From an uncultured Bacilli bacterium (GTDB taxonomy: Bacteria > Bacillota_I > Bacilli_A > RF39 > UBA660), in contig CANRPZ010000001.1 of the NCBI GenBank assembly GCA_947632625.1, forward strand, positions 1-41,726: 41,726 nucleotides of DNA, given 5' to 3'. Below the pieces are notes generated by a model. The model saw only the letters and a list, made by a program, of their open reading frames with translations, was not told where the DNA came from and did not search any database. Below, in pieces: positions 5,589 through 32,861 of this stretch. Every line of letters starts with the position of its first letter. The stretch's first letter is position 1. A program made the translations under genes and the position numbers.

Positions 5589-6264
5589 TTTTATACCCCA
5601 CTCCCCAAATTGTTAAAATATACTTGGGATTTTTTCCTGTATCTTTCATTTTTTCTCTTAAATGTCTTATATGAACCATTATAGTATTATTATCTAATTT
5701 ATAATATTTTTCATCCCAAGCATTTTTAAATAATTCATCCGTGGTAACCACATTACCTCGATTTAAGCATAAATACCATAAAATTTTAAACTCTATTGGA
5801 GTTAAATTAATTTTTTGATCATTATAAAAAAATTCGTGTGTTTTATTATTAATAACAATTCCTCTAAAATCAATAATATCAGTTTCTATATTGCTTTTAT
5901 TATAAGTTTTAAACCTCCGAAGCTGGGCCTTTACTCTAGCAACTAATTCAAGTGGCATGAAGGGTTTCGTTATATAATCATCTGCACCAATCGATAAACC
6001 ATTTATTTTATCGATACTTTCTACTTTCGCCGTTACAAATATAATGGGAAAAGTATATTTCTTACGAATTTTAGAACATAAAGATAAACCATCAATATCT
6101 GGCATCATTATATCAAGGATAGCCAAATCAATTTTTAAATTTTCTATATCTTTTAAAACATTTTTACTATTGTAATATTTATAAACATTGAAACCTTCAT
6201 TTTTTAAATAAATATCAATTAAATCTGCAATTTCTTTCTCATCATCGACAACTAAAATATTCAT
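5578..6264 (-). CDS. OmpR/PhoB-family response regulator
   Basis: It has a receiver domain (ILVVDDE, LAILDIMMPDIDG, TAK) and a winged-helix C-terminus (LTPIEFKILWYL, IWGVGYKI). It overlaps the kinase gene by 11 nt. Confidence 0.88.
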   Translation of the reverse strand: MNILVVDDEKEIADLIDIYLKNEGFNVYKYYNSKNVLKDIENLKIDLAILDIMMPDIDGLSLCSKIRKKYTFPIIFVTAKVESIDKINGLSIGADDYITKPFMPLELVARVKAQLRRFKTYNKSNIETDIIDFRGIVINNKTHEFFYNDQKINLTPIEFKILWYLCLNRGNVVTTDELFKNAWDEKYYKLDNNTIMVHIRHLREKMKDTGKNPKYILTIWGVGYKIEK

Positions 6265-10933: not shown

Positions 10934-12730
10934 CTAACTTTCTTCTTTTAATATTTCCAAGAAGGCTTCTTTAGGAACCTCAACATTTCCAAGCATTTTC
11001 ATTTTCTTTTTACCTTCTTTTTGTTTTTCTAATAATTTTCGCTTTCGAGAAATATCTCCACCATAACATTTTGCCAGAACATTTTTTTTCATTGCACTAA
11101 TCGTTTCTCGAGCAATCACTTTTGTTCCAATACTGGCTTGAATAGGAACTTGAAACATTTGACGTGGAATAATATCTTTTAATTTTTCAACAATAAGTCT
11201 TCCTCTTTGGTAAGCAAAATCTTTATGGACAATAGTGGATAAGGCATCCACAATTTCACCATTTAATAAAATATTCATTTTTACTAACTTGCTTTCCTTA
11301 TAACCACATAGTTCATAATCAAAAGAAGCAAAACCTTTTGTAGTACTTTTTAATTTATCAAAAAAATCATAAACAATCTCTGATAAAGGAATTTCATAAT
11401 GGATATTAACTCTTGTATCTTCAATGTATTCTAAAGATTTATAAATCCCTCTTTTGTTTTGGCATAATTCCATTATTGGTCCAATATACTCACGAGGAAC
11501 AATTATATTCGTATAGATATAAGGTTCTTCTATTTTTTTTATGTAAGTAGCATCAGGCATTTTATTTGGAGAATCTATATCTAAAACCGTTCCATCCGTT
11601 TGATAAACTTTATATATAACACTTGGACTCGTAGCAATGATATCCAAATCAAATTCTCGTTCTAAACGGCTGATAATAATATCCATATGTAAAAGGCCTA
11701 AAAAACCCATACGAAATCCAAATCCTAAAGCAATAGAGTTTTCGGCTTCAAAAGTTAAAGCGGCATCATTCAATTTTAATTTTTCAATAGCTTCTTTTAA
11801 ATTTTCATATTTATTTGGTTCCACAGGAAATATTCCGGAATAAACCATAGGTTTCATTTTTTTGTAACCTTCAAGGGCTTTTGTAGCACCCTCTTTTTCG
11901 GTTGTAATGGTATCTCCAACCTCAACGCTCGTTATATCTTTGATACTTGCACAAACATACCCAACATCACCACTTTTTAAAATATCCAGTTTTTTTTCTT
12001 TTGGAGTATGTACGCCAAGTTCGCTCACTATAAAACAATTTCCACTCGCCATCATTTTAATCGTATCTTTTATTTTTAAAGACCCATCGACAACTTTTAC
12101 TAAAGCAACTATTCCTTTATAAGGATCAAAGTACGAATCAAATATTAAGGCTCTTAAAGGTTTATCCAAATGATTTTCGGGTGGTTTAATACGCGTAACA
12201 ACCGCATCTAAAAGTTCTTTTACTCCTTCACCTGTTTTGCCACTGCATAATAAAATTTCTTCTTCTTTAAAACCAAGGACATGTTTTAATTCCTCTTTTA
12301 TTTTCGAAACATTTGCGTTAGGTAAATCAATTTTATTAATAACGGGAATAATCGTTAAATCATTTTGCATAGCTAAATAAAGATTGGCAAGCGTTTGTGC
12401 TTCAATTCCCTGGGCGGCATCCACAACTAAAATAGCTCCTTCACAAGCAGCAAGGCTTCTTGAAACCTCATAGGAAAAATCAACATGCCCAGGGGTATCA
12501 ATTAAATTTAAAATATAATTTTCATTTTGATAAGTATAATTTAAACAAACAGCATTTAATTTTATTGTAATGCCGCGTTCTCTTTCTAAATCCATACTAT
12601 CTAGGACTTGCTCCACCATTTCTCTTTTATCTATTGCATGAGTAAGTTCTAGCATACGATCGGCAAGAGTACTTTTCCCGTGATCAATATGAGCGATAAT
12701 AGAGAAATTACGTATATTTTCTTGTTTCAT
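10934..12730 (-). CDS. lepA: Elongation factor 4 (LepA)
   Basis: [30 protein letters not shown] and the LepA C-terminal domain are present. The start is set at the ATG of MKQENIRNF; the longer ORF begins with a GTG abutting the RBS. Confidence 0.95.
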
Positions 12731-12790
12731 AAGTATCACTACCTCTATTATACTTATTTTTAAAAAAAAGAAAAGAATTTTTTCTTCCCT

Positions 12791-13783
12791 TTATATCCAT
12801 ACACCATAGGTAATAGCTGCCATAGCAAGTAAAAAACCAACAACCCAAAATAATTTTACAATATCCGTTTCAGCCCATCCTAGTTGTTCAAAATGATGAT
12901 GCAAAGGGGCCATTTTAAATACTTTTTTATGAAACTTTGTTATCGCAATAATTTGAATAAAACTGGATAATGTTTCAATAACAAATACACCACCAACTAA
13001 AACTAAAGATAGTTCGTGTCTGGTTACAATCGCAACCGTTGCTAAAGCGCCACCTAAAGCAAGGCTTCCTAAATCTCCCATAAAGATTTTGGCAGGATGC
13101 GTATTATAAAGTAAAAAGCCAAGTAAACTCCCTACCAAAAGGAAACAAAAGATAGCGACCTCTTCATAACCTTCCATCCATCCTGTATTCCAAGCAATAA
13201 TACCAAAAGCTAAAAATGCAATCGCTGATAAACCTCCTGCTAATCCATCCAATCCATCTGTAATATTTACAGCATTTGAGGTTCCAACTAAAACAAATAA
13301 TATAAAAATACCAAAGACCCATCCCATCGGAATATTAATTCCTAAAGATGTAATCCATAAAACTGGCTCTCCACCATTTTTCATAAAGATATAGAAAAAG
13401 ACAAGCGCAATTCCCATTTGCATTAAAAATTTGGTCGTGATACTAATTCCTTTATTATTTTTAAATTTTATTTTCAAATAATCGTCCATAAAACCTAAAA
13501 AAGCATAACTTATAAAAACAAATATTAAAATAATTAAATTATGACTTAAAGAAATACTACCCCTTATATAAAGTAAGAATAAGGAAACTAAAACAGGAAT
13601 TATGAAGATAAAACCTCCCATCGTAGGTGTCCCATTCTTTTTTAAATGCCTTTCTCCAATCGTATGACTTACATTCTGTCCTAATTTTCTTCGACGCGCA
13701 AATCTTACAAAAAAGAAACCAAAAAGCATCGATATCACAAAGCCTAGCATGATGGACATCGCAGCTTTTGCTAATATTAACAT
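12791..13783 (-). CDS. mraY: Phospho-N-acetylmuramoyl-pentapeptide transferase
   Basis: A polytopic membrane protein with NAVNITDGLDGLAGG, GDLGSLALGG and APLHHHFE. Confidence 0.93.
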   Translation of the reverse strand: MLILAKAAMSIMLGFVISMLFGFFFVRFARRRKLGQNVSHTIGERHLKKNGTPTMGGFIFIIPVLVSLFLLYIRGSISLSHNLIILIFVFISYAFLGFMDDYLKIKFKNNKGISITTKFLMQMGIALVFFYIFMKNGGEPVLWITSLGINIPMGWVFGIFILFVLVGTSNAVNITDGLDGLAGGLSAIAFLAFGIIAWNTGWMEGYEEVAIFCFLLVGSLLGFLLYNTHPAKIFMGDLGSLALGGALATVAIVTRHELSLVLVGGVFVIETLSSFIQIIAITKFHKKVFKMAPLHHHFEQLGWAETDIVKLFWVVGFLLAMAAITYGVWI

Positions 13784-13856: not shown

Positions 13857-14722
13857 CTAGTTAGACAATAGTAAGGAAACTTGCCCACCTTCTAAAGCAT
13901 AGTAATTTCCTTCCGGACTTTGATATAGAACTTTATCTCCTTCGCCACTCGTTAAAACTTGAAACCCTTTCAGTTGTTTTTTGGCTTCCTGAAGACTTAA
14001 GCCAACAACATTAGGAAGCATAACGTATTTTTGATCAAGCCATGTATATTCTCGGGGCATTCCTTCATTTGTTTTTGGATACCCATATAAACTAATAGCG
14101 GTTTTAAAAACATTTTTGGCAATCGGAGCGGAAACAACTCCTCCATATTGTGTAACACCTTTGGGATTATCAATTGCTACATATACTACAATTTCTGGGT
14201 CATCTGCTGGCATAAAGCCCATAAAAGATAAAATATAATTTCCAACCATATAAGCACCATCTTTTACTTTTTGCGCCGTTCCAGTCTTTCCTCCAATTCG
14301 GTAGTTTTCAATATATGCGTTTTTCCCTGAGCCATTCGCAACAACACTTTCTAAAGCGTATCTTACCATTTTACTTGTATCTTCACTAATCACACGAACT
14401 CCTTCATCGGGTTTAAACAATTTTATAACGCTATTGGTTTCGGGCTCTGTCATTTTTGATACAATATAAGGAGTATGTAAAATTCCGCCATTAATCGCTG
14501 CCGAAACTGCACGCACTTGTTGAATAGGTGTAACACTTATCCCTTGACCAAAACTTGTTGTTGCAAGTTCTACTGGACCCATTTTATCTAGAGAAAATAA
14601 TATTCCACTTGCTTCTCCATTTAAATCTACTCCTGTTTTTTTACCAAAACCAAAACTTTGAATATAATTTAATAAACGTTCTGCTCCGAGCTTTTGACCC
14701 ATTACAACAAACCCTGGGTTAC
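13857..14722 (-). CDS. spoVD: 3' segment of the split SpoVD-like class B penicillin-binding protein (transpeptidase C-terminal half plus one PASTA domain)
   Basis: The ORF reads MGQKLGAERLL..GGKTGTAQ (KTG motif)..PNVVGLSLQEAKKQLKGF (PASTA). The frame stays open upstream of the Met as NPGFVV up to the GGTTAC core at 14717..14722. The SxxK and SxN motifs are missing here; they lie in the 5' segment at 20214..21272. Confidence 0.85.
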
Positions 14723-14744
14723 TTTTTTACAAGCAAGAGAGACT
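14717..14744. repeat. attL-like junction: core GGTTAC, 9-bp spacer, then 13-bp repeat AGCAAGAGAGACT
   Basis: Read directly from the sequence as GGTTAC TTTTTTACA AGCAAGAGAGACT. The 13-mer is the exact reverse complement of 20203..20215. Confidence 0.8.
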
Positions 14745-14762
14745 TTTTAACTAAAAAAATTT

Positions 14763-16367
14763 TTATTTTCTCATATTTATTTCAATTTCTTCATCTTGTT
14801 TAGCAAAATTAAAGACAACCTGTAACTTTAAATGCTTTCTATCACTATCGATTTTACTCACGAGCACTTTATCAATAAATAAATTAAAATATTTTTTAAT
14901 ATTATTTCTAATGTCCAATTGAAATTCTAACTCTTTTTTTATATTTAAAATTAAAGGTTCATAATAATTAAATTTGGAATCCATTTTTAGTAAATCATTT
15001 TTTAGTTTCAATATCATTTCCTGTATTTTTTTATTTTTACTTTTAAATTCTTCTTCACTAATTAATCTTTTTAAAAACATATCTAGTAATCGTTCTTTAA
15101 ATGTTTCTTGCTCTTTTATTTTTGCTTCTAAAGTTTTATGTGTACAAATACCATTACTTTCTTTAAGTAAAAAGATATAATCTTTTACAATTGCATTTAA
15201 TATTTCCGTTTTATTTTCTATAAATTTTTCCAACCTATTAGCAAAAATTTCATCTAACTGTTTTTCATATAATATTGGTGTTTTACATCCCTTTATACCA
15301 TGTCTCAAATATTCATTACATTGCCAAACAGGATTTTCTTTTCTTTTACCACTTGCTGTTCTTATAAAAGTTGTATGATGTTCTATGCAAAATAATTTCG
15401 ATGTATAATTCTTATTTTCTAGATAAAATTCTTTATTTAAAACGTTTTTATTCCATATTTCTGTTCTTTTCTCTAATATTTTGTTCGCTTTATTCCAAAT
15501 TTTTTCTGTAACAATAGGAGGAATTATTTCCGGAGTTGCTTTTTCAAGTACCCATTCCTCTTTAGGATTCAATTTTTTCTTATGCGTTTTGTAATCCACA
15601 ATACTACTCATATTGGCAGTATACCATCCCTTGTATCGATAATTTTTAATCATTTTCTTTAATGTTGCATCACTAAAAATTTTACCTTTTCTAGTATAAT
15701 ATCCATTTTCTGCTAAAATTTCTCCGATTTTTTTGAACCCATATTCTCCTGATGAATATAAATTATATAATAATTTTACAGCAGGAGCTTCTTTTTCATT
15801 TATAATCAGTTTACAATCTTTTTTATTATAACCATAAAGCCCTCCCCCACCAACTTTTCGATCCTTAACGCTTCTTTTAATACCAAATTTTACTCTTTCT
15901 GATAGTTTACGAACCTCATCTTGGGCCATGCTTGCCATTAAAGTTAATCGAAATTCGCTGTCTGGATAAATCGTATTTATATTATCGGAAATAAAAAAGA
16001 CAATAACACCATAATTTAATAATAATTGAGTATATTTTATACTATCGATTGTATTACGAGCAAATCTAGAAACCTCTTTTGTTAAAATTAAATCAATTTT
16101 TCCTAATCTAGCATCCTCTATCATTTTTAAAAACTGCTCTCTTTTATAAACTTGCGTTCCACTTATCCCCTCATCACTATAACTTGCGACATGCAACCAT
16201 GAGTTCACATTAGAAATCATATCGTGAAAATATTTCACTTGATTTTCTAACGAATTTAATTGATCATCCTTATCCGTTGAAACTCGCCCATAATCTGCAA
16301 CTCTTAAATTCATATCATAAATTGTTTTACCGAGCATTAACTCCCTTCTTGCCTGAATTATATCCAA
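14763..16367 (-). CDS. Large serine recombinase (SpoIVCA/TnpX-like)
   Basis: The N-terminal resolvase domain has the catalytic-Ser context VADYGRVSTDKDDQLNSLENQ, plus LILTKEVSRFARN. A recombinase domain, a Cys-containing zinc-ribbon-like region (CIEHH..WQCNEYLRHGIKGC) and a C-terminal coiled coil follow. The start is uncertain: TTG at 16367, ATG at 16337 or ATG at 16313. Confidence 0.9.
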   Translation of the reverse strand: MDIIQARRELMLGKTIYDMNLRVADYGRVSTDKDDQLNSLENQVKYFHDMISNVNSWLHVASYSDEGISGTQVYKREQFLKMIEDARLGKIDLILTKEVSRFARNTIDSIKYTQLLLNYGVIVFFISDNINTIYPDSEFRLTLMASMAQDEVRKLSERVKFGIKRSVKDRKVGGGGLYGYNKKDCKLIINEKEAPAVKLLYNLYSSGEYGFKKIGEILAENGYYTRKGKIFSDATLKKMIKNYRYKGWYTANMSSIVDYKTHKKKLNPKEEWVLEKATPEIIPPIVTEKIWNKANKILEKRTEIWNKNVLNKEFYLENKNYTSKLFCIEHHTTFIRTASGKRKENPVWQCNEYLRHGIKGCKTPILYEKQLDEIFANRLEKFIENKTEILNAIVKDYIFLLKESNGICTHKTLEAKIKEQETFKERLLDMFLKRLISEEEFKSKNKKIQEMILKLKNDLLKMDSKFNYYEPLILNIKKELEFQLDIRNNIKKYFNLFIDKVLVSKIDSDRKHLKLQVVFNFAKQDEEIEINMRK

Positions 16368-16384
16368 TTTTTCAAGTCCTTTCT

Positions 16385-16570
16385 TTAGGTTTGAAATTCT
16401 AATAATAACTTATCAATTTTTTTCCCTAATAAATTTTGCATTTTATTATAAATATCCAAAGATATTATTTTTTTTTCATATAAATCTTTATTGATAGACA
16501 TTCTTAATTTTAAAATAAGATACTCTTTGGGTAATTTTTTGGTTTTCTCTTTTTCATTTATAAAATCCAA
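16385..16570 (-). CDS. Small hypothetical protein (about 61 aa) directly upstream of the recombinase
   Basis: AGGAGGAGG lies 7 nt upstream of a TTG at 16570..16568, inside the longer tool ORF. The product is LDFINEKEKTKKLPKEYLILKLRMSINKDLYEKKIISLDIYNKMQNLLGKKIDKLLLEFQT. I recognise no family. Confidence 0.45.
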   Translation of the reverse strand: MDFINEKEKTKKLPKEYLILKLRMSINKDLYEKKIISLDIYNKMQNLLGKKIDKLLLEFQT

Positions 16571-16608
16571 ATAAATTCCTCCTCCTATTAAAATTATTAA
16601 ATTCAAGC

Positions 16609-16635
16609 AAAAAAAAGAACTTATATAAAATTCTT
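16609..16635 (-). terminator. Weak candidate intrinsic terminator after the ABC-transporter genes
   Basis: The minus strand reads AAGAATTTTATATAAGTTCTT followed by T8. The stem is short and AT-rich. Confidence 0.4.
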
Positions 16636-16644
16636 AATAAATTC

Positions 16645-17295
16645 TTAATCAAAATAATTTTTATTTAAATTAATTTTAAACAAATTAAAACAAAATAATA
16701 GAATATCAAGAATAACTAAAAAGGCTATTGATATTGCATACCCATTATAATAATACGAAAAAATTAAAAAAAGAAGATATCCTACAAAAAAAATAGTATA
16801 AAATTTATTTTTATAAATAATTACACTTACTATTGCCAAAAGCAAACTATAAGCCCAAATAAGATCTAAAAAAAATAGCGATGGAAAAAAAGTAAATTTT
16901 CCTATAAGAATATAATATAAAAACGAAAGAATAAAAGCGTGTCCAATTTTATATATAAACAAAAATACAGAAAGAACGATTGTTTTTTTTAAATACCAAT
17001 TTTTATCATTAATGCGAGTAAAAATATTTATTTTTGACACAATCAAATCTTGAATGATTAAATAATATATTAAATAGATTTGAAAAAAAAGTAGAAATAA
17101 TTTTAATATTAATAATAATATATTGGCTTGATTTAAGCTAATATTTCCATAAAATACATCGAATAAGCTATAAGTTCCATTTTTATATATAAGTCCAATA
17201 CTACAAATGAGAACAATTTCTAAAAAAAGAAAAAGGATTATTTGCTTCCATTTATTTTTTAAGTTATAAAATGTTTTTTTTATAAAATATTGCAT
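16645..17295 (-). CDS. Polytopic membrane protein, putative ABC-2/LanG-like permease subunit
   Basis: About 6 hydrophobic segments. The ATG overlaps the upstream stop (ATGA), and the gene lies downstream of an ABC ATPase. Confidence 0.55.
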   Translation of the reverse strand: MQYFIKKTFYNLKNKWKQIILFLFLEIVLICSIGLIYKNGTYSLFDVFYGNISLNQANILLLILKLFLLFFQIYLIYYLIIQDLIVSKINIFTRINDKNWYLKKTIVLSVFLFIYKIGHAFILSFLYYILIGKFTFFPSLFFLDLIWAYSLLLAIVSVIIYKNKFYTIFFVGYLLFLIFSYYYNGYAISIAFLVILDILLFCFNLFKINLNKNYFD

Positions 17296-18011
17296 CAGCC
17301 CATATCCCTCCTTAAAGCACTTATTACTTGATACAAAATAGTAGCTATAGTTACTAATATGAAAATAAGAAGCAAAGAGTAGTGAACATCCAAAGTAATA
17401 TTTTCAAATCGAGGATTTAATAAGTAATACCCAAAAAAGAACTTAAAATGCGTTGCAATTTCAAAAGAAATAGGATAAATAACCAAAGATAAGGCAATTA
17501 AACAAGCCAAAATGAACGAAAATAAAGGATGAATTAAGTTCCATAAGTAATATAAAATTAGCGAAAGCACAGAACTAATTAGTATAAAACGACAAAAATG
17601 GTATATAAAATAAATTAAAATATTAATTCCATTAATAGACATATTAATAGAAAAATCACCTATATATTTAAAAAATAGCGGAATACAATTCATCATAAAA
17701 GATAATAAAATAACTATGCCATTAGTAATAAAAATGATTATAGACATTTCAGCAATGTAACTTTTTTTACTTTTATGACGTATAATCACCGAATAATTTT
17801 TTTTATATAAATCACAAATATTTAAAGTATTAACAAATAAACACAAAAGTAGTATAGCATTAAACCAAGAACTATTATAAATACTATATATTCCATAAAA
17901 AAAACCTGTTTGATTTGCGATATCCATCACACCATAAAAACTATTGATTATTAATATTAAAAAAATTCCCTTAAATTTATAGCTATTAAAACTATTAATT
18001 ACAAAACTCAT
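17295..18011 (-). CDS. Polytopic membrane protein, putative ABC-2/LanE-like permease subunit
   Basis: About 6 hydrophobic segments. I chose the start at MSFVINSF (ATG 18011), 1 nt after the ATPase stop. The tool ORF extends to 18080 by overlapping the ATPase gene. Confidence 0.55.
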   Translation of the reverse strand: MSFVINSFNSYKFKGIFLILIINSFYGVMDIANQTGFFYGIYSIYNSSWFNAILLLCLFVNTLNICDLYKKNYSVIIRHKSKKSYIAEMSIIIFITNGIVILLSFMMNCIPLFFKYIGDFSINMSINGINILIYFIYHFCRFILISSVLSLILYYLWNLIHPLFSFILACLIALSLVIYPISFEIATHFKFFFGYYLLNPRFENITLDVHYSLLLIFILVTIATILYQVISALRRDMG

Positions 18012-18012
18012 T

Positions 18013-18666
18013 TTATCTTTCAGTTTTCTTATCATTATATTTCTCCAATTTACCATCTTTAAATTTATAAACCTCATCACATAAATACTCTATATCCTCT
18101 TTAATATGAGAAGCAATAATAATTGTTTTGCCCTTTTTCTTTTCCTCCCTTAAATAATCTCTAAACTTTTTAGCAGTTTCGTCCTCAATACCATTTAAAG
18201 GCTCATCAAAAATAAGAACACTAGGATTTTCCATAATAACTTGAGCAAGACCTAATTTTTGTTTCATTCCTAACGAATACTTTCCATATTTTTTATCTTT
18301 TTCGGCATCAATATTAACAATCTTCATAGCGTCTATAATATCGTCATCTGAAATTTTATTTTGAATACTTGCTAATAATTTTAAATTTTCAAAACCTGTT
18401 AATTCTGGAATAAAATCAGGAGATTCAATTAAAGCTCTAGTATTTGGAGAAAAATTATTTTTATTATTATAATTCACACCATCAAAAAGTACACTACCCT
18501 CACTTGGAAAATAAAATCCACAAATGATTTTTAATAGTACACTTTTTCCTGATCCATTAGGACCAATCAATCCATAAATTTTTCCACTGTTAAAAGTTAT
18601 TGTAATATTTTTTAGAATATCAATCCCTTTAAAACTTTTTGATAAATTTTTTACCTCAATTTTCAT
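18013..18666 (-). CDS. ABC transporter ATP-binding protein (bacteriocin/lantibiotic-protection type by size and context)
   Basis: Walker A GPNGSGKS, Q-loop, signature YSLGMKQK, Walker B VLIFDEP and an H-loop SH. The start is set at ATG 18666, with GTGAGG 6 nt upstream. Confidence 0.85.
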   Translation of the reverse strand: MKIEVKNLSKSFKGIDILKNITITFNSGKIYGLIGPNGSGKSVLLKIICGFYFPSEGSVLFDGVNYNNKNNFSPNTRALIESPDFIPELTGFENLKLLASIQNKISDDDIIDAMKIVNIDAEKDKKYGKYSLGMKQKLGLAQVIMENPSVLIFDEPLNGIEDETAKKFRDYLREEKKKGKTIIIASHIKEDIEYLCDEVYKFKDGKLEKYNDKKTER

Positions 18667-18674
18667 ATCATACC

Positions 18675-19565
18675 TCACTTAATCATTTCACAATCCATAA
18701 TTGTTTTTTCTTTATTCTTATAACAGCAGTATACAATAAAAGTTGATATAGCTGCATATAAAAATCCAACAATTAAAAATGGTCCAATTCCAAATACATA
18801 TTTATAGGAATAAATATCATAAATATTTAAAATTGATTGAATTTGAATATGCAAAACTTTATAAAAAATAGTTGTAATCACCGCTTCGTTAATGATTTCA
18901 ATTCCAATAAAAGTTAAATAAGCCTCTATAATTGCAACTATCAAACTTTTATTTTTTTTAACATAAAGTAATCCTAAATTAGCATAGAAAATACTAAAGA
19001 ATACTAAATTTAGTAAATAGCTTATAAAAAACAAACCAAAATTTTTTAAGTATATCTCATCAAACGTAGAATAAGAATTTGCTAATGCAAATGAATAATC
19101 AAAATTTCCTTTTGATAAAAAACAAGAAATCATAAATACAATAATCATTAAAAAAGGTAAAATCCAAATACATTTATATGCGTTTTTAAAAAGGTGTTTT
19201 AAATAATTTGAATAATTATTCCGTAGTAAATAATTTTTTAAATAAGAATTTTTCATTTCTTTTGCTATGCACCATATAGCAGGAATAAGAATAAAAAGTG
19301 GTCCAAATCCACATAATATACTTAAAGAACCATCAACTACAATACTAAAAAATATCGTATATGCATCTACTGGAGGTGATTCCCATTCTAAAATAGTACT
19401 ACAATTTGACTTTACAGAGGGATTTTGTATGCATTCATTTTTTGCATTTGAAAAATATTTTTCAATTTTGTAGCGATTAACTGCATAAGAAATACCTCCA
19501 CTTAAGGCAATAACTAATAAAATTAAAAAAGAAATAATAATGGCTCGATTTTTCAAATATTTCAT
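18675..19565 (-). CDS. Polytopic membrane protein of unknown function with a Cys-containing extracellular loop
   Basis: An N-terminal TM segment, the loop NECIQNPSVKSNCSTILEWESPP, then about 5 more TM segments. It is the first membrane gene of the element operon. Confidence 0.55.
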   Translation of the reverse strand: MKYLKNRAIIISFLILLVIALSGGISYAVNRYKIEKYFSNAKNECIQNPSVKSNCSTILEWESPPVDAYTIFFSIVVDGSLSILCGFGPLFILIPAIWCIAKEMKNSYLKNYLLRNNYSNYLKHLFKNAYKCIWILPFLMIIVFMISCFLSKGNFDYSFALANSYSTFDEIYLKNFGLFFISYLLNLVFFSIFYANLGLLYVKKNKSLIVAIIEAYLTFIGIEIINEAVITTIFYKVLHIQIQSILNIYDIYSYKYVFGIGPFLIVGFLYAAISTFIVYCCYKNKEKTIMDCEMIK

Positions 19566-19612
19566 AATAAACTCCTAAATTAATAGCAAAGGGAATAATT
19601 TATTTTTGCTAA

Positions 19613-20032
19613 TTAAAGCATTCTATCGTCAATATACCAAGAACCAGAATGGCTAGCAGTAGTTACAGCTGACTTTTCTCTACGTAAAAGTAAAGTATAT
19701 TCATCACCGCTAAATATATTAATTGAATTGCTACCCCATGTTCCAGTTTCATTTTGTTTTACAGTTATAAAACTACTTTTTCCAGAATCACTAGATGTTT
19801 GTGCTTTTATATTTACTATAGCAGACGTTAAATTATCAACAGCTCCTGAACTATAATAGTATTGTGGACTATCAATTTCCTTTATATGAGTATAAGCTTC
19901 TACAGTATTTCCAAAAGTAGGTAAAGTAATTCCTACTATTGATTGATACCCTTTATTGTAAGCAAAAGAAGCTAATGCTGAAAAAACGCAAGATACAGAA
20001 AATGCTAAAATTGTATACTTTAAATATTTCAT
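19613..20032 (-). CDS. Small secreted protein of unknown function (about 139 aa)
   Basis: The start is ATG 20032, with GTGAGGTGG 9 nt upstream. The signal peptide is MKYLKYTILAFSVSCVFSALASFA. The mature part is Ser/Thr-rich and looks beta-rich. I recognise no family. Confidence 0.55.
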   Translation of the reverse strand: MKYLKYTILAFSVSCVFSALASFAYNKGYQSIVGITLPTFGNTVEAYTHIKEIDSPQYYYSSGAVDNLTSAIVNIKAQTSSDSGKSSFITVKQNETGTWGSNSINIFSGDEYTLLLRREKSAVTTASHSGSWYIDDRML

Positions 20033-20152
20033 ATAATTATACCACCTCACTTAATACATTCCCTTTGCTATCCTCATAATAACATAGTAAAACAATAAAT
20101 TTTACTTGTAAAGTCTAAAAAGTCCTTTAAATTGTTCGAAATTACATTTTGC

Positions 20153-20183
20153 TATAAAAAAAATCCTTAAATTGGATTTTTAG
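20153..20183 (-). terminator. Candidate bidirectional intrinsic terminator just inside the element's right end
   Basis: The minus strand reads AAAATCC AATTTAA GGATTTT followed by TTTT. On the + strand it is flanked by an A-run. It sits 30 nt downstream of the truncated PBP 5' fragment stop. Confidence 0.5.
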
Positions 20184-20202
20184 ACATAATTTAAGCCATT
20201 TT

Positions 20203-20230
20203 AGTCTCTCTTGCTAAAATTCTAGGTTAC
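20203..20230. repeat. attR-like junction: 13-bp repeat AGTCTCTCTTGCT, 9-bp spacer, then core GGTTAC
   Basis: Read directly from the sequence as AGTCTCTCTTGCT AAAATTCTA GGTTAC. It mirrors 14717..14744. Confidence 0.8.
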
Positions 20231-21272
20231 AAGAGTTTTCTACAACTTGTAAAAAGGTTTCTGCTCCATGCCCTCCTGCTTTCCAACATTTAATTCGGGC
20301 ATTTTCAACAGCAATAGATCCACTATCATAGTAATTATCTTTAAATAGATTAATCGTTTGCTCTTGTAAAGAAGCTGCAAGCGTAATAACTTTAAAAGTT
20401 GATCCAGGTTCATAAGTCATCCAAATAGGCAAATTTCGGTTAATAACCTCTACAGAAGCTGTTTGGTAATGATTAGGATTAAAATTAGGACGACTTGCCA
20501 TTGCTAAAATTTCTCCAGTTTTAGGGTTCATTGCCAAAATAAGAGCTTGATCTGGATTATATTTTGTCATAACATTATCGAGTTCATTTTCTATAGAAAG
20601 TTGTAAATCGATATCAATAGTTAAATCCACATTAATACCATTTTGGGGTTCTTCATAAATTTCAGTTAAGGAAAGACGATTCCCCTTGCCATCCGAAAAA
20701 TATTTAATAGCTCCATCTTCTCCTGTTAAATACGCATCATAATTTAACTCAATTCCTGAAAGCCCTTGATTGTCAATTCCAACATACCCTAAAACATGAG
20801 ATAAAACATTATCATAAGGGTAATATCTTTTGCTTTCTTTTACTAAATATACTCCGTCATAACCTAGATTGTTTATTTGTTCTGCAACATCATAAGAAAG
20901 TTGCCTTCCTTCTGGGTGTACTCTTTCAATGGATGTTTTTTTTGCCACATGGCGATACATTTCTTCATAAGATACGTTTAATATTTCGGCAAGTTTTGTA
21001 GCAACCTCTTCTTTATTTATAATTTGATTAGGAATTAATACTAATGAGGTAGTGGTTAAGTTCGTTGCTAAAACTTTACCATTACGATCCCTAATTTCTC
21101 CCCTATCCGCTGTTATAGGTAATTTACGACTCCACAAAGATTCAGCCAAGGAATTTAATTGATCATATTTAAAGACTTGTATATAAAAGACTCGAAAAAC
21201 AATGATAAACAAAAGTATAATAACAGCAACTAAAATGAATCTTATACGACTATGAATCGTATTAAAAAACAT
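20214..21272 (-). CDS. spoVD: 5' segment of the split SpoVD-like class B penicillin-binding protein (TM anchor, dimerisation domain, start of transpeptidase)
   Basis: It has an N-terminal TM segment, ADRGEIRDRNGKVLA, the SxxK motif (EPGSTFKVITL) and ends at ..VVENSCN. Three element-encoded codons (LEF) and a stop follow. Confidence 0.88.
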   Translation of the reverse strand: MFFNTIHSRIRFILVAVIILLFIIVFRVFYIQVFKYDQLNSLAESLWSRKLPITADRGEIRDRNGKVLATNLTTTSLVLIPNQIINKEEVATKLAEILNVSYEEMYRHVAKKTSIERVHPEGRQLSYDVAEQINNLGYDGVYLVKESKRYYPYDNVLSHVLGYVGIDNQGLSGIELNYDAYLTGEDGAIKYFSDGKGNRLSLTEIYEEPQNGINVDLTIDIDLQLSIENELDNVMTKYNPDQALILAMNPKTGEILAMASRPNFNPNHYQTASVEVINRNLPIWMTYEPGSTFKVITLAASLQEQTINLFKDNYYDSGSIAVENARIKCWKAGGHGAETFLQVVENSCNLEF

Positions 21273-21323: not shown

Positions 21324-21357
21324 AAAAAAATGAAACAACTATTCCTCTATTGTTTCA
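21324..21357 (-). terminator. Intrinsic terminator after the DUF1292 gene
   Basis: An 8-bp perfect stem TGAAACAA/TTGTTTCA (21331..21338 and 21350..21357) has an 11-nt loop containing the stop codon. T7 follows on the minus strand. Confidence 0.6.
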
Positions 21358-21626
21358 TTTGCTTCTTTAAATAAATCAAAAAAGATTTTAGATATTTCCT
21401 TTAGTTCATCAGCTTCGACTATTTTTTCAATCGTTTCATTGCCTTCACTAACGACTAATTTTCCAATCATCTGATTTTGCTCTATTAAATTTTCTTCTTT
21501 ATCGACCTCAATTAAATAAAGATAAGTGCATTCATTATAAAGAACTAAATTTGCTACAACATAATCGTGATCTTTTCCTTCTTCATCCTCAATTGTTACA
21601 ATTTTATATTGCTCTATTTTTTCCAT
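21339..21626 (-). CDS. DUF1292 / YrzB-like small acidic protein
   Basis: 95 aa reading IVTIEDEEGKDHDYVVANLVLYNECTYLYLIEVD.., the typical DUF1292 pattern. The ATG overlaps the stop of the upstream gene (TAATG). Confidence 0.6.
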   Translation of the reverse strand: MEKIEQYKIVTIEDEEGKDHDYVVANLVLYNECTYLYLIEVDKEENLIEQNQMIGKLVVSEGNETIEKIVEADELKEISKIFFDLFKEANETIEE

Positions 21627-23986
21627 TAACGCCCTTTCCTCTCTATAGTATCATTTATAAAATGACTTTCACTTTCATTAAAGAATCCTTCATAACCATT
21701 TGAATTTGAATTTTCCATTCTACCAACATAACCTATTTGTTTAGCACCATTATTTTCTAATGCTGCCTTTTTGGCATTGGCATCTAAATCATTTTCAAAT
21801 ATCGTTATCTTTTCACCATTATAAAGATAAACAATCCCTCCAACGGTTCTTACATTTAAAGCATCAAAATAAGTAGGTACACCATTTTTTTCGCTTGCCA
21901 TATCATATTGATTACTATAAATTATACCTTCCGTTGTAAAAGTATCCCCAAAATCATGATACTCTTCTTTTTCCGGCGTAGGATTTGAAATCAAAATATC
22001 TTCTTTACGATTAACTAAATTTTGTTGAGCGATAGCACTTGATTGTTTTTCAGAATCCGAATTTAATAATTTGTTTATATTTTGTGCAAATTCATCATTG
22101 CTCGTATTTAAATTTTCCAAAGAAGAATTGCGATTTTCAGAATCTAAATCAAAAACCGCTGTTTTATTTTCATCTATTGAAACACGATAATCTTTTGCAA
22201 TCTCTTCATCATTTTCTTCGTTAATTTGTAAAGAATTATCCGGAAGAATAGAAGAGGTACGTAAAGCATTCAATCCTAAAATAGAAATTCCTACAACAGC
22301 CGTAGAAAGAGCCCCAATTAAAACTTTTTTACGAGTAGCTTCTTTTACATTTTTTACTTTTAAGACATGCTTTTTATCCTTTGGAATTTTATTTAAACTG
22401 CTTTTAATTTTTAAATAGGTATCTTCTAAAATATTTGTTTTTTCTTTATTTGTAAATGCGGCATTTAATTTTTCCATTAATACATTAAACACGTTTTTCT
22501 TCTCTTCATCAGAATATCTTGAATCTTTTATAAATTCATCGGGATTTAAAGCAGCGGACATAAATACTTTTTCTAACGTACTACCAATAAAAGTAGATTT
22601 TAAAGCCACTTTTAGATTAGCAAAAACAGCCAATTTTTTGCCTTTATTAAATGCATATAATTTTTTACGTAGTTTCTTTTCTTCTTCATCTCTTAATGCT
22701 AAACCATCATTTTGCTTTAACTTTTCAATTTCTTTATAAATTTTTAAAGTTGTATCCTCTATAGTTTCGACATCAAGATAGCAATCGATAAATTCAAAAT
22801 CATGCATGGCAGAAAATTCTTTAAGACGTGCTTGATATTTTTTATATTTCATAAAAACGATATTAAAGCGATCCAAATCCTTTTTTAAAATATAAAGTGG
22901 CTCTTTATTATAAGAAGCAACAGCTATTACATCTTTCGAATTACCATGTTGTTTTGCTTCACGTACTAAAGAGAACAATCTTTCTTCAGCATATAAAAAA
23001 TCTTCATAGATATGGGCATACTCTTCTGCCAGGTTTTCTGTTTCTTCTAAAGAGTCAGCATTCGAAATTTCTTTATTGTATTTTTCCATATAAGAATTTA
23101 ATTTATTTTGATACAAAATCCATCTAGATTTATATTTTGAAGAAATTCGCTTTGTCGTTTTCCTATATTTTACAGCAACCTTTTTTCCCGAAGCTTTTTC
23201 AATATTAGCTAAAATACCTTTAATATAAAGAATTTTATCCGTAAGGTTTACAAGGGATTTCAAATATTGTTCATCAATTACAAGTGTTTTTTCCTCTACA
23301 ACAATTGGTTCATGTTTATCCGTTTGTTCTTTACTAAATAAATGATTAAGCGCATCCAAAGTTTCATTTCCTATATCTTGTAAGCTTTGAGCATCAATAG
23401 GTTCATAACCTTCTAAAGAAACCTCACGAATACGATTTGTAGCTTGACCAAGAGTTTCAATACGTTCATAAGCTTCCATCATTTCTTTTGGTCCTTGAAG
23501 ATTTTTTAAGTTTTCCGTTAATTTTGTAAATTTACGACTTGCCTTTTCTTTATGGTTTGCTAAAGGATTTACAATACGTACAAAATTATCGTTTAATTCA
23601 TTATACAAAGTTTCTCGTTTATGCATAACTTGTGAATTAAAGAAAATCAATTTTCGAACATCTTCCCATTCGCTTTTGATCTCGGCTTTTTCTACAAAAC
23701 CAATAACATGATGATAATGCAAAAGATGATTAATAACTGGTACAAGCAATAAAAGAAAATCGTTTTCCTTTTCTAAAGAATTGACTAAATGGCTTCTAAA
23801 AGAATCATGTTCAAGAGAATCATAGATAGAGGTATATTCTTGTAAAAGATTTTCTACTTGTAAAACAAACTGATTAAAGTCCGAAATATCCTCCATTTTT
23901 AGAGTATTTTTTAGGATACTTTCTTCAAGTGCATTTATTTTCGCTTCGAATTGGTTTAGTCTTTCATTATAATTATCCATGTCCAT
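21626..23986 (-). CDS. Large bitopic protein of unknown function (coiled-coil-rich cytoplasmic N-terminus, one TM, extracellular C-terminal domain)
   Basis: 786 aa. About 545 aa are Lys/Glu-rich and helical, followed by the TM segment VLIGALSTAVVGISILGLNAL and a C-terminal region of about 220 aa. I recognise no motif. Confidence 0.6.
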   Translation of the reverse strand: MDMDNYNERLNQFEAKINALEESILKNTLKMEDISDFNQFVLQVENLLQEYTSIYDSLEHDSFRSHLVNSLEKENDFLLLLVPVINHLLHYHHVIGFVEKAEIKSEWEDVRKLIFFNSQVMHKRETLYNELNDNFVRIVNPLANHKEKASRKFTKLTENLKNLQGPKEMMEAYERIETLGQATNRIREVSLEGYEPIDAQSLQDIGNETLDALNHLFSKEQTDKHEPIVVEEKTLVIDEQYLKSLVNLTDKILYIKGILANIEKASGKKVAVKYRKTTKRISSKYKSRWILYQNKLNSYMEKYNKEISNADSLEETENLAEEYAHIYEDFLYAEERLFSLVREAKQHGNSKDVIAVASYNKEPLYILKKDLDRFNIVFMKYKKYQARLKEFSAMHDFEFIDCYLDVETIEDTTLKIYKEIEKLKQNDGLALRDEEEKKLRKKLYAFNKGKKLAVFANLKVALKSTFIGSTLEKVFMSAALNPDEFIKDSRYSDEEKKNVFNVLMEKLNAAFTNKEKTNILEDTYLKIKSSLNKIPKDKKHVLKVKNVKEATRKKVLIGALSTAVVGISILGLNALRTSSILPDNSLQINEENDEEIAKDYRVSIDENKTAVFDLDSENRNSSLENLNTSNDEFAQNINKLLNSDSEKQSSAIAQQNLVNRKEDILISNPTPEKEEYHDFGDTFTTEGIIYSNQYDMASEKNGVPTYFDALNVRTVGGIVYLYNGEKITIFENDLDANAKKAALENNGAKQIGYVGRMENSNSNGYEGFFNESESHFINDTIERKGR

Positions 23987-24042: not shown

Positions 24043-26148
24043 TTAATTTCCTAAAATAATTTCTAAAGGAATTGTTTTATCAATAAGACTATCCACCGGA
24101 ATATTTATACTTACAACTTTACCATATCCATTAAGTTCATAAGGTAAGCCGATTAAATTACAAAAAGTTACAATTTCATTTGTACTCCATCCAATAACAT
24201 TAGGCATTTTATAATGAACCGAATTGGTTAGTAAAAATACTTTTGAACCAATTAAAACCTCTCTATTTGTTAATGGATATTGATTGATAATATATTTGCC
24301 ATCGCCAATTACAACGGTATTTACCCCCATTAAACTTAATTTATCAACGGTTGTTACTACCTCACTAGAAATATAATTGGATAAAGTTATAATTTTTGAT
24401 TTATCTTCATCACTTATAATATCGACGATATTTAAATTTTTAGCGGCTTCTTCTACAATATTATGAACAATATTCGCAACATCTTGTGTCCCACCAACGA
24501 TTTGTTTGATGGCAATATAAATAACATATTCGGGATTTTCATAAGGAAATACTCCAGCAAAACTTTTTATATAATCATATTCTCCATCTAAATAGCCCCC
24601 TTTAGGACTAGCAATTTGAGCAGTACCGGTTTTTCCAATTAATGTAACATTATCTGGAGCAAATAAATGGTTTGTTTTTTCAACTCCATACACAACGTTA
24701 TACATTAAACTCTTAATCTTATTAATCGTTTCTTTACTAGCCACTTTGGCTATTTCGGTACGTCCATATTCTTTCACAATGTTACCATTTTCATCTACAA
24801 TCTTTGAAACTAGATAAGGTTTTATCATGACCCCATCATTTACAATCGTACTCAAAGCTTGAAGCATTTGAATAGGTGTTACGGTAATTCCTTGTCCAAA
24901 AGAAGCTGTTGCAACCTCACTTTCATATTTAAACGTGATTTTTCCTTCTACCTCATTGGGAAGCTCTATTCCCGTTGTTTTTCCAAAACCTAAAGTATCA
25001 TAAAAGCTTCTTAAATTATCAGCACCAAGTTCTTTTGATAAAAGAGTGGCTGCCACATTACTAGAACGAGCAAAACCGGTATCAAAATCAATTTCTCCCC
25101 AACCTTTTCCATCATTGTAATCACTTATTTTGGTGCCATCACTTAAAGTAATGGATCCAGATTTATAGGTTTTTGTTCCATCGTATTTTCCACTTTCAAT
25201 CGCATCCATAAAAGAAAATATTTTCATAACAGAACCAGGTTCATATTGATAAGAAACCAAAGGATTTAAATAACTATTTAAATCTTCTCTTGTATTTAAA
25301 TCAAAATTAGGACTACTAGCACTACCTAAAATTTCTCCTGATTTAGCATTCATTAAGGTAACCGTTGCCCAATCAAATGTATAATTTTTTTCCAATTCTG
25401 TTACAGCATTTTCTAATAAATGTTGAATATCAGCATTTAAGGTTAAATATAAATTATTACCACTAATACTTTTTTCTTCTTGATAAGGCGTATTGGGAAT
25501 TTGATAACCGTATGCATCTTTTTCGTATTCGATATAACCATTTTTTCCTTTTAAAATATCATTAAAATAGAGTTCTAACCCCATCTCTCCATTAATCTCT
25601 CCTTCATCGTTTGCTTTTGCATAACCTAAAATATAGGAAGCATAGCGATTATTGGGATAGTATCGTTTCGTTCCACTAATAAAATCAATGCCTGGTAAAT
25701 CTAAAGCCATGATTTCATTTTTTTTAATTTCGGTAATTCCCCTTTTTAATTCCACTTGGTAGCGATCTTCTTTATTTAAAAGTTCCAAAAGTGTGGATTC
25801 CTCTTTTTCTAATATTCCACTTAATTCTCTGGCTGTTTTTTCTTTATCGACTACATGTTGGGGATTATTACTATCTTTCGTACGACTACTCGATAAATAA
25901 GCAATTACCGTATAAGAATTTGTATCCAAAGCAAGCTCTTCTCCATTTGCATAGTAAATAGAGCCACGAGAAGCATACGTAACTTTTTTTTCTAAATTTC
26001 GATTATTAGCAAACGCAGTCAAATCAATGCCATCAACTTGCTTACTTGTTGCAACATAAACTAATTTAGCACTTATAATGACAAATAAAAAAGAAACAAG
26101 TAAAATCGTTAATTTGGTATTAAATTTTATACTATTGTTTCTTTTCAT
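24043..26148 (-). CDS. pbpB: Class B penicillin-binding protein 2B (FtsI-type) with two PASTA domains
   Basis: An N-terminal TM segment, SxxK (EPGSVMKIFS), SxN (ARSSNVAA), KTG (GKTGTAQ) and two C-terminal PASTA-like repeats. It lies directly after ftsL. Confidence 0.9.
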   Translation of the reverse strand: MKRNNSIKFNTKLTILLVSFLFVIISAKLVYVATSKQVDGIDLTAFANNRNLEKKVTYASRGSIYYANGEELALDTNSYTVIAYLSSSRTKDSNNPQHVVDKEKTARELSGILEKEESTLLELLNKEDRYQVELKRGITEIKKNEIMALDLPGIDFISGTKRYYPNNRYASYILGYAKANDEGEINGEMGLELYFNDILKGKNGYIEYEKDAYGYQIPNTPYQEEKSISGNNLYLTLNADIQHLLENAVTELEKNYTFDWATVTLMNAKSGEILGSASSPNFDLNTREDLNSYLNPLVSYQYEPGSVMKIFSFMDAIESGKYDGTKTYKSGSITLSDGTKISDYNDGKGWGEIDFDTGFARSSNVAATLLSKELGADNLRSFYDTLGFGKTTGIELPNEVEGKITFKYESEVATASFGQGITVTPIQMLQALSTIVNDGVMIKPYLVSKIVDENGNIVKEYGRTEIAKVASKETINKIKSLMYNVVYGVEKTNHLFAPDNVTLIGKTGTAQIASPKGGYLDGEYDYIKSFAGVFPYENPEYVIYIAIKQIVGGTQDVANIVHNIVEEAAKNLNIVDIISDEDKSKIITLSNYISSEVVTTVDKLSLMGVNTVVIGDGKYIINQYPLTNREVLIGSKVFLLTNSVHYKMPNVIGWSTNEIVTFCNLIGLPYELNGYGKVVSINIPVDSLIDKTIPLEIILGN

Positions 26149-30735: not shown

Positions 30736-30799
30736 ACAATACACCTGTTATTAGTATTCAAAAAAATCATATTTTCATACAATATACTAGGTGGTATTT

Positions 30800-31964: not shown

Positions 31965-31991
31965 GCAAAAAAAAGAAGCTATTTTTAGCTT
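31965..31991 (-). terminator. Intrinsic terminator after the pilin gene
   Basis: The minus strand reads AAGCTAAAAATAGCTT followed by CTTTTTTTT. The stem overlaps the stop codon. Confidence 0.55.
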
Positions 31992-32463
31992 ATGAGAATT
32001 TTTTAGAGGCTTCATTATTACAGGTTGTCGATGCACTCGTACCATTAGTAGCTTCTTTTCCCGTTGCTCCAGCATCTTTTCCGTCAATAACAAAGCTTCC
32101 ATTACTAATCCAAAATTTATAAGTTACTTTCTTACCGGTTGAATCTGGAGAAACAAGTACACTACCCGTATATTTATCAGTGCTTCCTTTACTAAATAAT
32201 CCTTCCTTATATAAATATTGTAAATCAAAGCAAGCGGCTCCCGTTGTAATATCTCCCTCCAATATCGCAGATTGATAAGCATTCTTTGCGGCATTTATTA
32301 AAGTATTTCCCTCAATCGCTAAAGCATTTTTTCGAGCTGTATCCATTTGCGAAAGCACACTATTCGTAGCAATTAATATGATAACGGCTAAAATAACAAT
32401 TACCGCTAATAACTCTACCAATGTAAAACCTTTTTTATTTGCTATTTTCATAAATTTTTTCAC
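31990..32463 (-). CDS. Type IV pilin / pseudopilin with prepilin N-terminal methylation motif
   Basis: The leader MKKFMKIANKKG is followed by FTLVELLAVIVILAVIILIA (the G|FTLxE class III signal). The C-terminal globular part has two Cys residues. Confidence 0.8.
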   Translation of the reverse strand: MKKFMKIANKKGFTLVELLAVIVILAVIILIATNSVLSQMDTARKNALAIEGNTLINAAKNAYQSAILEGDITTGAACFDLQYLYKEGLFSKGSTDKYTGSVLVSPDSTGKKVTYKFWISNGSFVIDGKDAGATGKEATNGTSASTTCNNEASKKFS

Positions 32464-32533
32464 TATCCTCTTTTATTATCAATAACATTATACTATATTA
32501 AAAATTTAGTTGTCAATGAAAGTTTAAAATTTT

Positions 32534-32860: not shown

Positions 32861-32861
32861 T

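Follow-up and report, generated by a model that had tools for sequence, protein, structure and literature searches.

Elements that interrupt sporulation genes accumulate in genes of the mother cell (PMC6957869, PMC4191935), and the interrupted targets named in those parts of the literature on which we draw include sigK, spsM, spoVFB, spoVR, gerE, yabG, kamA and spoVK (PMC4191935, PMC5595907, PMC10747680, PMC6957869; SPbeta preprint). In skin and SPbeta, a small gene lies directly upstream of the large serine recombinase (LSR) gene, as seen in the pairs skr-spoIVCA and sprB-sprA (PMC6957869). The gin element of Bacillus cereus ATCC 10987 splits gerE and encodes, along with a serine recombinase, a small accessory factor (GirC and GirX; PMC5595907). 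Other LSR elements residing in sporulation genes are the yin prophage in yabG of Clostridium botulinum (PMC10747680), vfbin in spoVFB, vrin in spoVR, phi3T in kamA and an SPbeta-like phage in spoVK. Here we describe an arrangement of this general kind in a 41,726-nt stretch of DNA from an uncultured Bacilli bacterium (contig CANRPZ010000001.1; the whole stretch analysed is referred to below as the window), in which the class B penicillin-binding protein (PBP) gene spoVD is split by a 5,508-bp element encoding an LSR. Its insertion point in spoVD is exactly the Asn codon of the catalytic SxN motif.

The split gene appears as two minus-strand open reading frames (ORFs) lying 5.5 kb apart, 20214..21272(-) and 13857..14702(-), the second of which can be extended to 14722. 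Both junctions bear the core GGTTAC, with the Asn codon (GTT) at 14718..14720 and 20226..20228, the offset between them being 5,508 bp. In silico deletion of these 5,508 bp, with the cut placed anywhere within the core, generates a single 635-aa ORF that reads ...FLQVVENSC-N-PGFVVMGQ... across the rejoined (attB) junction, for which the predicted string is GTAGAAAACTCTTGTAACCCAGGGTTTGTTGT. Without the deletion, the 5' ORF reads on into the element and terminates at 20214 (...NSCNLEF). Against the NCBIfam equivalog model TIGR02214 (spoVD_pbp; cut-off 688), the joined protein reaches 722 bits over residues 10-633 of 635; it has the SxxK, SxN and KTG motifs (STFK at 291, SCN at 347 and KTGT at 493) and a single PASTA domain, and its gene lies within the dcw cluster. 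On the same model the two other class B PBPs of the window (24043..26148 and 28789..30744) reach 340 and 97 bits; their best matches are PBP2X-like and PBP2B-like, and both genes are intact. More than 100 uninterrupted homologues of 634-635 aa, part of which carry the source name stage V sporulation protein D, align to the joined protein with 72-91% identity and 100% coverage. A rabbit-gut metagenome-assembled genome (MAG) that is syntenic with the window (locus L087) has an intact spoVD in the gene order mraZ, rsmH, ftsL, pbpB, large unknown ORF, DUF1292-like ORF, spoVD, mraY, lepA, and its DNA shows the empty site (...AACTCTTGCAACCCAGGGTTTG...). Given that this relative has the empty site and that intact orthologues align end to end, the split is real and the reconstruction is collinear, and we regard it as certain that spoVD would be restored without a scar if the element were excised precisely.

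The initial annotation of the window had read much of this from the letters, and we could reproduce its account of the two ORFs as halves of one class B PBP, their in-frame fusion by a deletion from GGTTAC to GGTTAC, the assignment of the 635-aa product to SpoVD with one PASTA domain, and the end-to-end alignment with intact relatives that it had called for (up to 91% identity). The 6-bp cores it had pointed out are likewise present and are accompanied by att-like 13-bp inverted arms, the LSR lies at one end of the insert in the same orientation as spoVD, and the products of the sporulation genes that it had listed in the window, SpoIIP and GPR, score above curated cut-offs. Its placement of the gene in the dcw cluster, after pbpB and before mraY, stands on one side: mraY adjoins spoVD, but pbpB does not adjoin it directly, as a 786-aa ORF and a 95-aa DUF1292-like ORF intervene.

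Joining the two ends of the element reconstructs an attP in the form of a 50-bp near-palindrome, made up of a 13-bp arm, 11 nt, AA, 11 nt and a second 13-bp arm (predicted circle junction AGTCTCTCTTGCTTGTAAAAAAGTAACCTAGAATTTTAGCAAGAGAGACT), as is expected for a serine integrase. In all 15 loci in which the junctions were read, AA is the sole dinucleotide common to both, representing bases 1-2 of the SxN Asn codon (AAC/AAT), and the family-level arms AGTATCTCTTGCT and AGCAAGAGATACT are kept 11 nt to each side; from this symmetry and sharing we infer that AA is the crossover dinucleotide. Where a locus holds both junctions, the element is 3.0-11.4 kb in length. The LSRs of most relatives end in a C-terminal tail, TNRDY..R.SFDNNFL.QKYLL, which is encoded by the right arm and crosses the junction into spoVD in another frame, so that its final residues would depend on whether the element is integrated or excised; it can be seen at L003:11560-11760 and L001:11700-11830, and in protein clusters P0002-P0120. 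The LSR of the window lacks the tail and stops 42 bp short of the junction, as other members of about 535 aa likewise do. Among the 120 best LSR clusters, about 85 tails match the integrated junction in direct orientation and about 11 the inverted one. In the inverted elements (L029:5900-11760; clusters P0019, P0022, P0025, P0028, P0031, P0032, P0037, P0040 and P0041) the LSR adjoins the 5' spoVD part and lies on the other strand, from which it follows that the central dinucleotide has the reverse orientation with respect to the LSR gene.

Homologues of the LSR run into thousands; those with 66-76% identity to it make up more than 100 protein clusters, almost all of them from gut metagenomes. 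A locus survey with one genome per species returned 80 loci, in 33 of which the LSR is 56-74% identical to that of the window. In 32 of these 33 it abuts a spoVD split at the SxN Asn codon; the contig of the remaining locus ends too early to judge, and there were no counter-examples. The 3' part of spoVD begins exactly at the Asn codon, no more than about 150 bp from the LSR stop, in 31 of the 33, L029 being inverted. The same abutment at the SxN codon is seen in L001-L006 and L096. Six contigs encoding two close LSR clusters have a 3' PBP fragment directly after the LSR gene (270-288 aa in five, 71 aa in L005), which is followed by mraY in the five with the longer fragment, and four of the six encode a VirD4/TraG coupling protein and a 2,110-aa SNF2 helicase upstream. 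TraG/VirD4 is carried by the relatives L001, L003, L004, L020 and L022. Some of the spoVD-site relatives are conjugative elements and others small cassettes, and elements with the same LSR differ in cargo. The element of L011 carries ABC cargo of the kind found in the window. The carriers are labelled as uncultured Bacilli, Tenericutes, Mollicutes and Candidatus Onthousia, and were recovered from the guts of rabbits, ruminants, chickens and humans. Spore-formers are predicted to occur in the related uncultured orders RF39, RFN20 and ML615J-28 (PMC10868615). The remaining 47 of the 80 loci, in which the LSR is about 40% identical, have no spoVD nearby, and in 32 of them the LSR adjoins a gene for an ABC substrate-binding protein; specificity for spoVD is therefore a property of one clade. 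In this sister group (L040-L086, e.g. L077:4937-5716) the substrate-binding-protein gene is on the opposite strand, and a homologous small ORF is found upstream. We regard it as firmly established that the chromosomal attachment site of the LSR clade is the SxN Asn codon of spoVD, and that the element in the window is a site-specific LSR element of a mobile, conjugative-element-associated family.

spoVD is also entered at other positions. In L011, L025, L030 and L031 a different element occupies the T-F-K codons of the active-site SxxK motif, and its LSR (L011 and L025; partial in L030), which is 36-39% identical to that of the window, lies at the left end of the element. A third element is found at the Gln codon of TPIQ in L005, L013, L015, L021, L022 and L024; these insertions have a conserved left end, GTCTAATAAATGATACCCTTA, and the LSR of L024 is 46% identical to that of the window. 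With such second-site insertions, spoVD is in three pieces in L011, L024 and L025 (L011:187-12498; L025:166-8112; L024:4167-16486). A further arrangement, at L021:10001-17459, looks like the relic of a past insertion: 3.6 kb upstream of an uninterrupted spoVD lie a 69-aa fragment of the same gene and an LSR with a disrupted catalytic region (YSRVLRNTDE for YGRVSTDKDDQ).

The insert itself encodes seven ORFs, all co-directional with spoVD (Table 1), and at 20-26% GC it is poorer in G and C than its flanks (30-34%). The cargo is a putative antimicrobial-peptide-protection ABC transporter. Scans with PHROGs, Pfam and NCBIfam detected no phage structural, replication or lysis genes in the element; a prophage identity was rejected because its integrase and its ABC transporter alone are recognised by PHROGs. 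No phage LSR in the collection searched exceeds about 43% identity to the LSR of the window, and the NCBIfam XisF model gives a weak match. The same family scans found no conjugation machinery (coupling protein, relaxase or type IV secretion) among the seven ORFs, whereas relatives have TraG/VirD4, so that the element of the window can at most be a derivative that is non-autonomous. When the element and the conserved leader of L003 were scanned against Rfam, snoRNA matches at chance level were the only ones. A terminator-like hairpin with a T-run, which was read directly off the sequence just inside the element, could block read-through from the spoVD promoter. It is AT-rich and was not called by our terminator scan, which demands at least three G-C pairs; the sigma-70 and terminator scan of the element showed no enrichment over shuffled sequences. 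A model in which the spoVD promoter drives the LSR gene by read-through was set aside because of this hairpin at the proximal end, because the conjugative versions are far too long and because about 10% of the elements are inverted.

Directly upstream of the LSR gene is a conserved small ORF, whose start in the window is most likely the TTG at 16570. All members of the clade and two distant ones have an ORF of 53-70 aa, the conserved form measuring 61-64 aa in the clade, that ends 20-40 bp before the LSR start and has the motif LPKEYLILKLRMSFNKELYEKKIISYDIYNKMQKLL. Its predicted fold is a two-helix hairpin (mean pLDDT 84); it belongs to no Pfam, NCBIfam or PHROGs family, its homologues are named only 'hypothetical', and the search for structural neighbours gave no significant match (best Foldseek E-value 0.6). 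Because its position matches that of the small genes in skr-spoIVCA and sprB-sprA, we consider the 61-aa ORF a candidate recombination directionality factor, and nothing more than a candidate. The segment upstream of it comprises, at the family level, a hairpin with a T-run (GGAACTCAATATTTGAGTTCTTTTTTT) and CTTAAT-N3-CTTAAT; of this hairpin, the window has retained the 3' half alone, as AAGTTCTTTTTTTT. A conserved leader 5' of the small ORF is seen at L003:9650-9990, with equivalents in L001, L007, L013-L015, L020, L023, L033 and L034, and pairing between its segment AAAATATTGAGTTTCAAA and the 5' strand of the T-run hairpin would be feasible, in an attenuator-like arrangement without an Rfam match. 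Ahead of spoVD itself, a CATAnnnT-like motif that resembles the -10 element of mother-cell sigma factors is found 10-20 bp before the ribosome-binding site in nine of 12 relatives (L009, L011, L012, L021, L024, L033, L036, L037 and L038), while the window and L087 have AAATAAAAT there.

Table 1. Features of the split spoVD gene and of the inserted element, in window coordinates
Feature	Position	Strand	Remarks
spoVD 3' part	13857..14720	-	N-PGF..., KTGT, one PASTA domain
Core GGTTAC, element/3' spoVD part junction	14717..14722	.	Putative crossover dinucleotide TT at 14719..14720
Element terminal arm AGCAAGAGAGACT	14732..14744	.	13 bp; 11 nt from crossover dinucleotide
Large serine recombinase, 534 aa	14763..16367	-	Resolvase, Recombinase and Zn_ribbon_recom domains; catalytic YGRVSTDK intact
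Conserved 61-aa ORF	16385..16570	-	TTG start after GGAGG; directly upstream of LSR; motif LPKEYLILKLRMSxNKxLYEKKIIS
Conserved segment upstream of small ORF	16571..16640	-	AAGTTCTTTTTTTT, then TTAATAATTTTAAT, then GGAGGAGG
216-aa polytopic membrane protein, putative permease partner	16645..17295	-	ORF and family scans
261-aa polytopic membrane protein, putative permease partner	17295..18080	-	Start codon uncertain
ABC transporter ATPase	18013..18678	-	Best NCBIfam match TIGR03740 (lantibiotic-protection ABC ATPase), 178 bits, below cut-off 310
296-aa polytopic membrane protein, cargo	18675..19565	-	No family match
145-aa cargo ORF, hydrophobic N-terminal segment	19613..20050	-	No family match; homologous ORF in L011 element
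Sigma-70-like site TTTACA-17-TACTAT	20084..20112	-	Consensus match 9 of 12; upstream of cargo genes
Hairpin with T-run, AT-rich (AAAAATCCAATTTAAGGATTTTTTTT)	20155..20181	-	Read directly off sequence; terminator-like
Element terminal arm AGTCTCTCTTGCT	20203..20215	.	Inverted repeat of 14732..14744; 11 nt from crossover dinucleotide
Core GGTTAC, 5' spoVD part/element junction	20225..20230	.	Inferred crossover TT at 20227..20228 (AA of Asn codon, gene orientation)
spoVD 5' part, codons 1-348/349	20229..21272	-	TM anchor, PBP dimer domain, STFK

All eight complete two-piece loci rebuild ORFs of 633-635 aa in which STFK, SCN and KTG are intact, and decay of the fragments, which the initial annotation had named as a sign against its reading, was seen in none of them. 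Between the window and its intact orthologue in L087, dN/dS is 0.065 for the 5' part and 0.057 for the 3' part of spoVD, as compared to 0.053 for mraY, 0.109 for pbpB and 0.091 for lepA; between L009 and L011, both of which are split, it is 0.03 for the 3' part (dS 0.28). By this measure the split halves show no relaxation of constraint, their dN/dS of about 0.06 being as in mraY.

In B. subtilis, SpoVD acts in the mother cell. We propose that the window holds a non-phage, non-conjugative integrative element consisting of cargo and a recombination unit, the latter formed by the two att junctions, the conserved 61-aa ORF and the LSR, whose integration splits spoVD and whose reverse reaction would rejoin it. 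During sporulation, the same LSR, probably aided by the small upstream protein as directionality factor, would excise the element in the mother cell, where SpoVD transpeptidase could then be made in intact form for cortex synthesis, and the forespore chromosome would retain the element. Unlike skin, the family would be currently mobile, with conjugative versions and small cassettes that are possibly mobilised in trans, and would have entered the same codon repeatedly in many species. We give this proposal an even chance of being correct. What suggests excision in the mother cell is the role of SpoVD, the rule, drawn from the literature, that mother-cell genes are where such elements gather, with which the two further LSR families in spoVD accord, the convergence of the three families, the number of carriers and the absence of decay. 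The presence of spoIIP and gpr in the window also favours it, as do its two further class B PBPs, both intact, which we count as serving vegetative growth.

Several observations weigh against excision being linked to sporulation or speak for an ordinary insertion, reversible but inactivating, that would leave the gene only upon transfer or stress, in carriers that lack a cortex or sporulate poorly. spoVD could then serve as a safe harbour, because growth does not depend on the gene and hosts differ very little in its SxN-coding stretch. The family moves horizontally, conjugative versions included, and the best solved-structure relative of the LSR is a conjugative-transposon recombinase. The broader LSR superfamily also uses a non-sporulation site, which in the sister clade is targeted by the same module with the same small ORF, and about 10% of the spoVD-site clade is inserted at the same codon in the opposite orientation. 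A regular-expression scan for the sigmaE, sigmaK, sigmaF and sigmaG consensus sequences of B. subtilis, which may not be those of the host lineage, found none on the gene strand of the element and nothing above shuffles; the conserved segment upstream of the small ORF has no conserved sporulation-type promoter motif, and a sigma-70-like site stands ahead of the co-directional cargo operon, so that the recombination genes could be expressed vegetatively. The small ORF is without detectable similarity to any known directionality factor. Limited and indirect searches brought to light no attP or attB excision product: the family attP pattern (AGTATCTCTT-N28-32-AAGAGATACT) had no match in IMG/VR and eight in JGI metagenome contigs, all unrelated hairpins without an LSR or spoVD nearby, the exact attP string of the window is absent from IMG/VR, and tails of the excised state numbered none among the 120 LSR clusters. 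Sequence identities of LSR and host SpoVD are uncorrelated (Spearman 0.05, p = 0.34, 325 pairs), with one pair showing 88% identity in the LSR and 57% in SpoVD, and the hosts nearest to the window (82-91% identical SpoVD) have an intact spoVD without the insert; the intact halves may thus just reflect recent insertion, and by themselves do not prove that spoVD is reconstituted. These host-associated orders of Bacilli have commonly lost sporulation (PMC10868615), and ICEBs1, in an engineered situation in which it was deprived of its attB, landed in B. subtilis spoVD, could not excise and stayed stuck (PMC3715440). Set against a plain insertion of this type are the three independent LSR families converging on one gene, the spread of the insertion over no fewer than 32 genomes at species level and more than 100 LSR clusters, the eight complete cases being free of decayed halves, the dN/dS of the split copies, which equals that of the essential neighbour, the sporulation genes kept nearby, and the published pattern of insertions in mother-cell genes that are rescued by excision. 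On balance we take it to be a real possibility, albeit one short of even.

The lack of co-divergence between LSR and host points to repeated horizontal insertions rather than an inherited skin-like relic, and these insertions, to judge from the sequences, are repeated and probably recent. A long-resident, vertically inherited element that has been domesticated in the manner of skin, and is kept only for timing spoVD expression, would agree with the small size of the element, its lack of transfer and phage genes and its intact LSR co-oriented with spoVD. It is nevertheless very improbable, as the closest hosts named above are free of the element, LSR and host do not co-diverge, the same LSR is accompanied by different cargo, and the cargo is an accessory, resistance-type transporter; we rejected a skin-like vertical origin on the absence of co-divergence. 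Of the skin-like picture drawn in the initial annotation, the split gene, the cores and the LSR layout hold. The element departs from that picture in that it is not a domesticated relic but belongs to a horizontally mobile family, which has entered the same codon independently in many hosts. The chance that an assembly or binning artefact has joined unrelated contigs within the PBP gene is negligible: nothing specific speaks for it beyond the hosts being MAGs, and the same junctions, with matching cores and inverted arms, recur in independent assemblies from different projects and animals. A bolder extension of the mother-cell proposal would make spoVD a hub of programmed rearrangement in uncultured gut Bacilli, where three unrelated LSR families, some of them conjugative, would occupy the SxxK, SxN and TPIQ sites and all would excise in the mother cell to rebuild the transpeptidase; we hold this to be rather unlikely. 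If true, the hub would give Firmicutes a counterpart to the several excision elements of heterocysts, and would provide the first conjugative elements to act as sporulation intervening elements.

Among described systems, gin is alike in being a non-prophage element that splits a mother-cell sporulation gene, in combining a serine recombinase with a small accessory factor, for which the 61-aa ORF is the candidate here, and in having a short core with flanking repeats whose recombination rebuilds the ORF. It differs in target (gerE), in size (28.6 kb against 5.5 kb) and in having three recombinases rather than one; moreover, its excision during sporulation has been demonstrated, while that of the present element is a prediction from sequence, and conjugative relatives are seen here. 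skin and SPbeta share the attL-rdf-int-attR layout of the recombination unit, in which the present element has a candidate rdf, the small gene directly upstream of that for the LSR and the insertion in a gene used only in the mother cell, but are (defective) prophages, whereas the element of the window has no phage genes, and their int or rdf is under documented sigmaE/K control, for which no B. subtilis-type match was found in the element. yin and the elements in spoVFB, spoVR, kamA and spoVK resemble it as strain-polymorphic LSR elements with an attB that is conserved in strains without the element; they differ in target gene and host lineage, and yin is confined to one strain whereas the present clade spans dozens of species. 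Integrative conjugative and mobilisable elements of Firmicutes with LSR integrases (TndX of Tn5397, TnpX of Tn4451 and the recombinases of the C. difficile CTn elements; PDB 3g13, 2mhc) are also comparable: the best solved-structure match is a conjugative-transposon recombinase, relatives carry VirD4/TraG and a giant SNF2 helicase, and the present family is horizontally mobile. The element of the window, however, has no transfer genes, and the targets of TndX and TnpX are looser than the strict one-codon specificity of this clade for spoVD. A more distant parallel is offered by the heterocyst elements of Anabaena/Nostoc (nifD-XisA, fdxN-XisF and hupL-XisC), where several independent elements lie in genes needed only in a terminally differentiated cell and XisF is an LSR; there the phylum and cell type are others, and different genes are split, as against one gene at up to three sites here.

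Some features of the window lie outside the element. The 786-aa ORF and the 95-aa DUF1292-like ORF between pbpB and spoVD (21339..23986), the former without a family match, are 46% and 62% identical to their counterparts in the syntenic relative, with dN/dS of 0.51 and 0.39, whereas their neighbours are 81-91% identical with dN/dS of 0.05-0.11. The dcw cluster is cut short (10934..13783), mraY being followed by lepA with no murE, murD, ftsW or murG, as is also the case in L087, while other hosts show the order mraY-ftsW-...-murG-murB-ftsQ. A VanR/VanS-like two-component system is encoded at 4485..6264 (VanR 359 against an NCBIfam cut-off of 350, VanS 335 against 400), and no van resistance genes were seen adjoining it. 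Downstream of gpr and spoIIP, in the region 31990..34610, there is a protein with a prepilin-type N-terminal domain (31990..32463).

Full-text literature searches, which did not cover the interrupted-gene list of Abe et al. 2013 (Mol Microbiol), returned no natural element interrupting spoVD, the artificial secondary insertion of ICEBs1 being the only case encountered; spoVD thus appears to be an undescribed target, as the initial annotation had supposed. What goes beyond the described cases is the involvement of conjugative carriers, the presence of three sites in one gene and the insertion exactly at catalytic-motif codons. The niche provided by sporulation genes is open to conjugative elements and small cargo cassettes, beyond prophages, and one gene can serve several LSR families. 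The LSR clade is also a source of natural integrases whose attB is conserved and whose 50-bp attP is well defined. A split spoVD will escape orthologue-based predictions of sporulation capacity in MAGs, and a survey has noted a 'reduced presence' of spoVD in RF39 (PMC10868615). Should excision be independent of sporulation, the family would represent a widespread mobile switch that turns off spore formation in gut bacteria, with a bearing on transmission biology. If the two are coupled, spoVD would join sigK, spsM, spoVFB, spoVR, gerE, yabG and kamA among the developmentally rebuilt genes, as the first gene for a cell-wall enzyme to be split at an active-site codon and the first case in the uncultured RF39/RFN20-like gut Bacilli.

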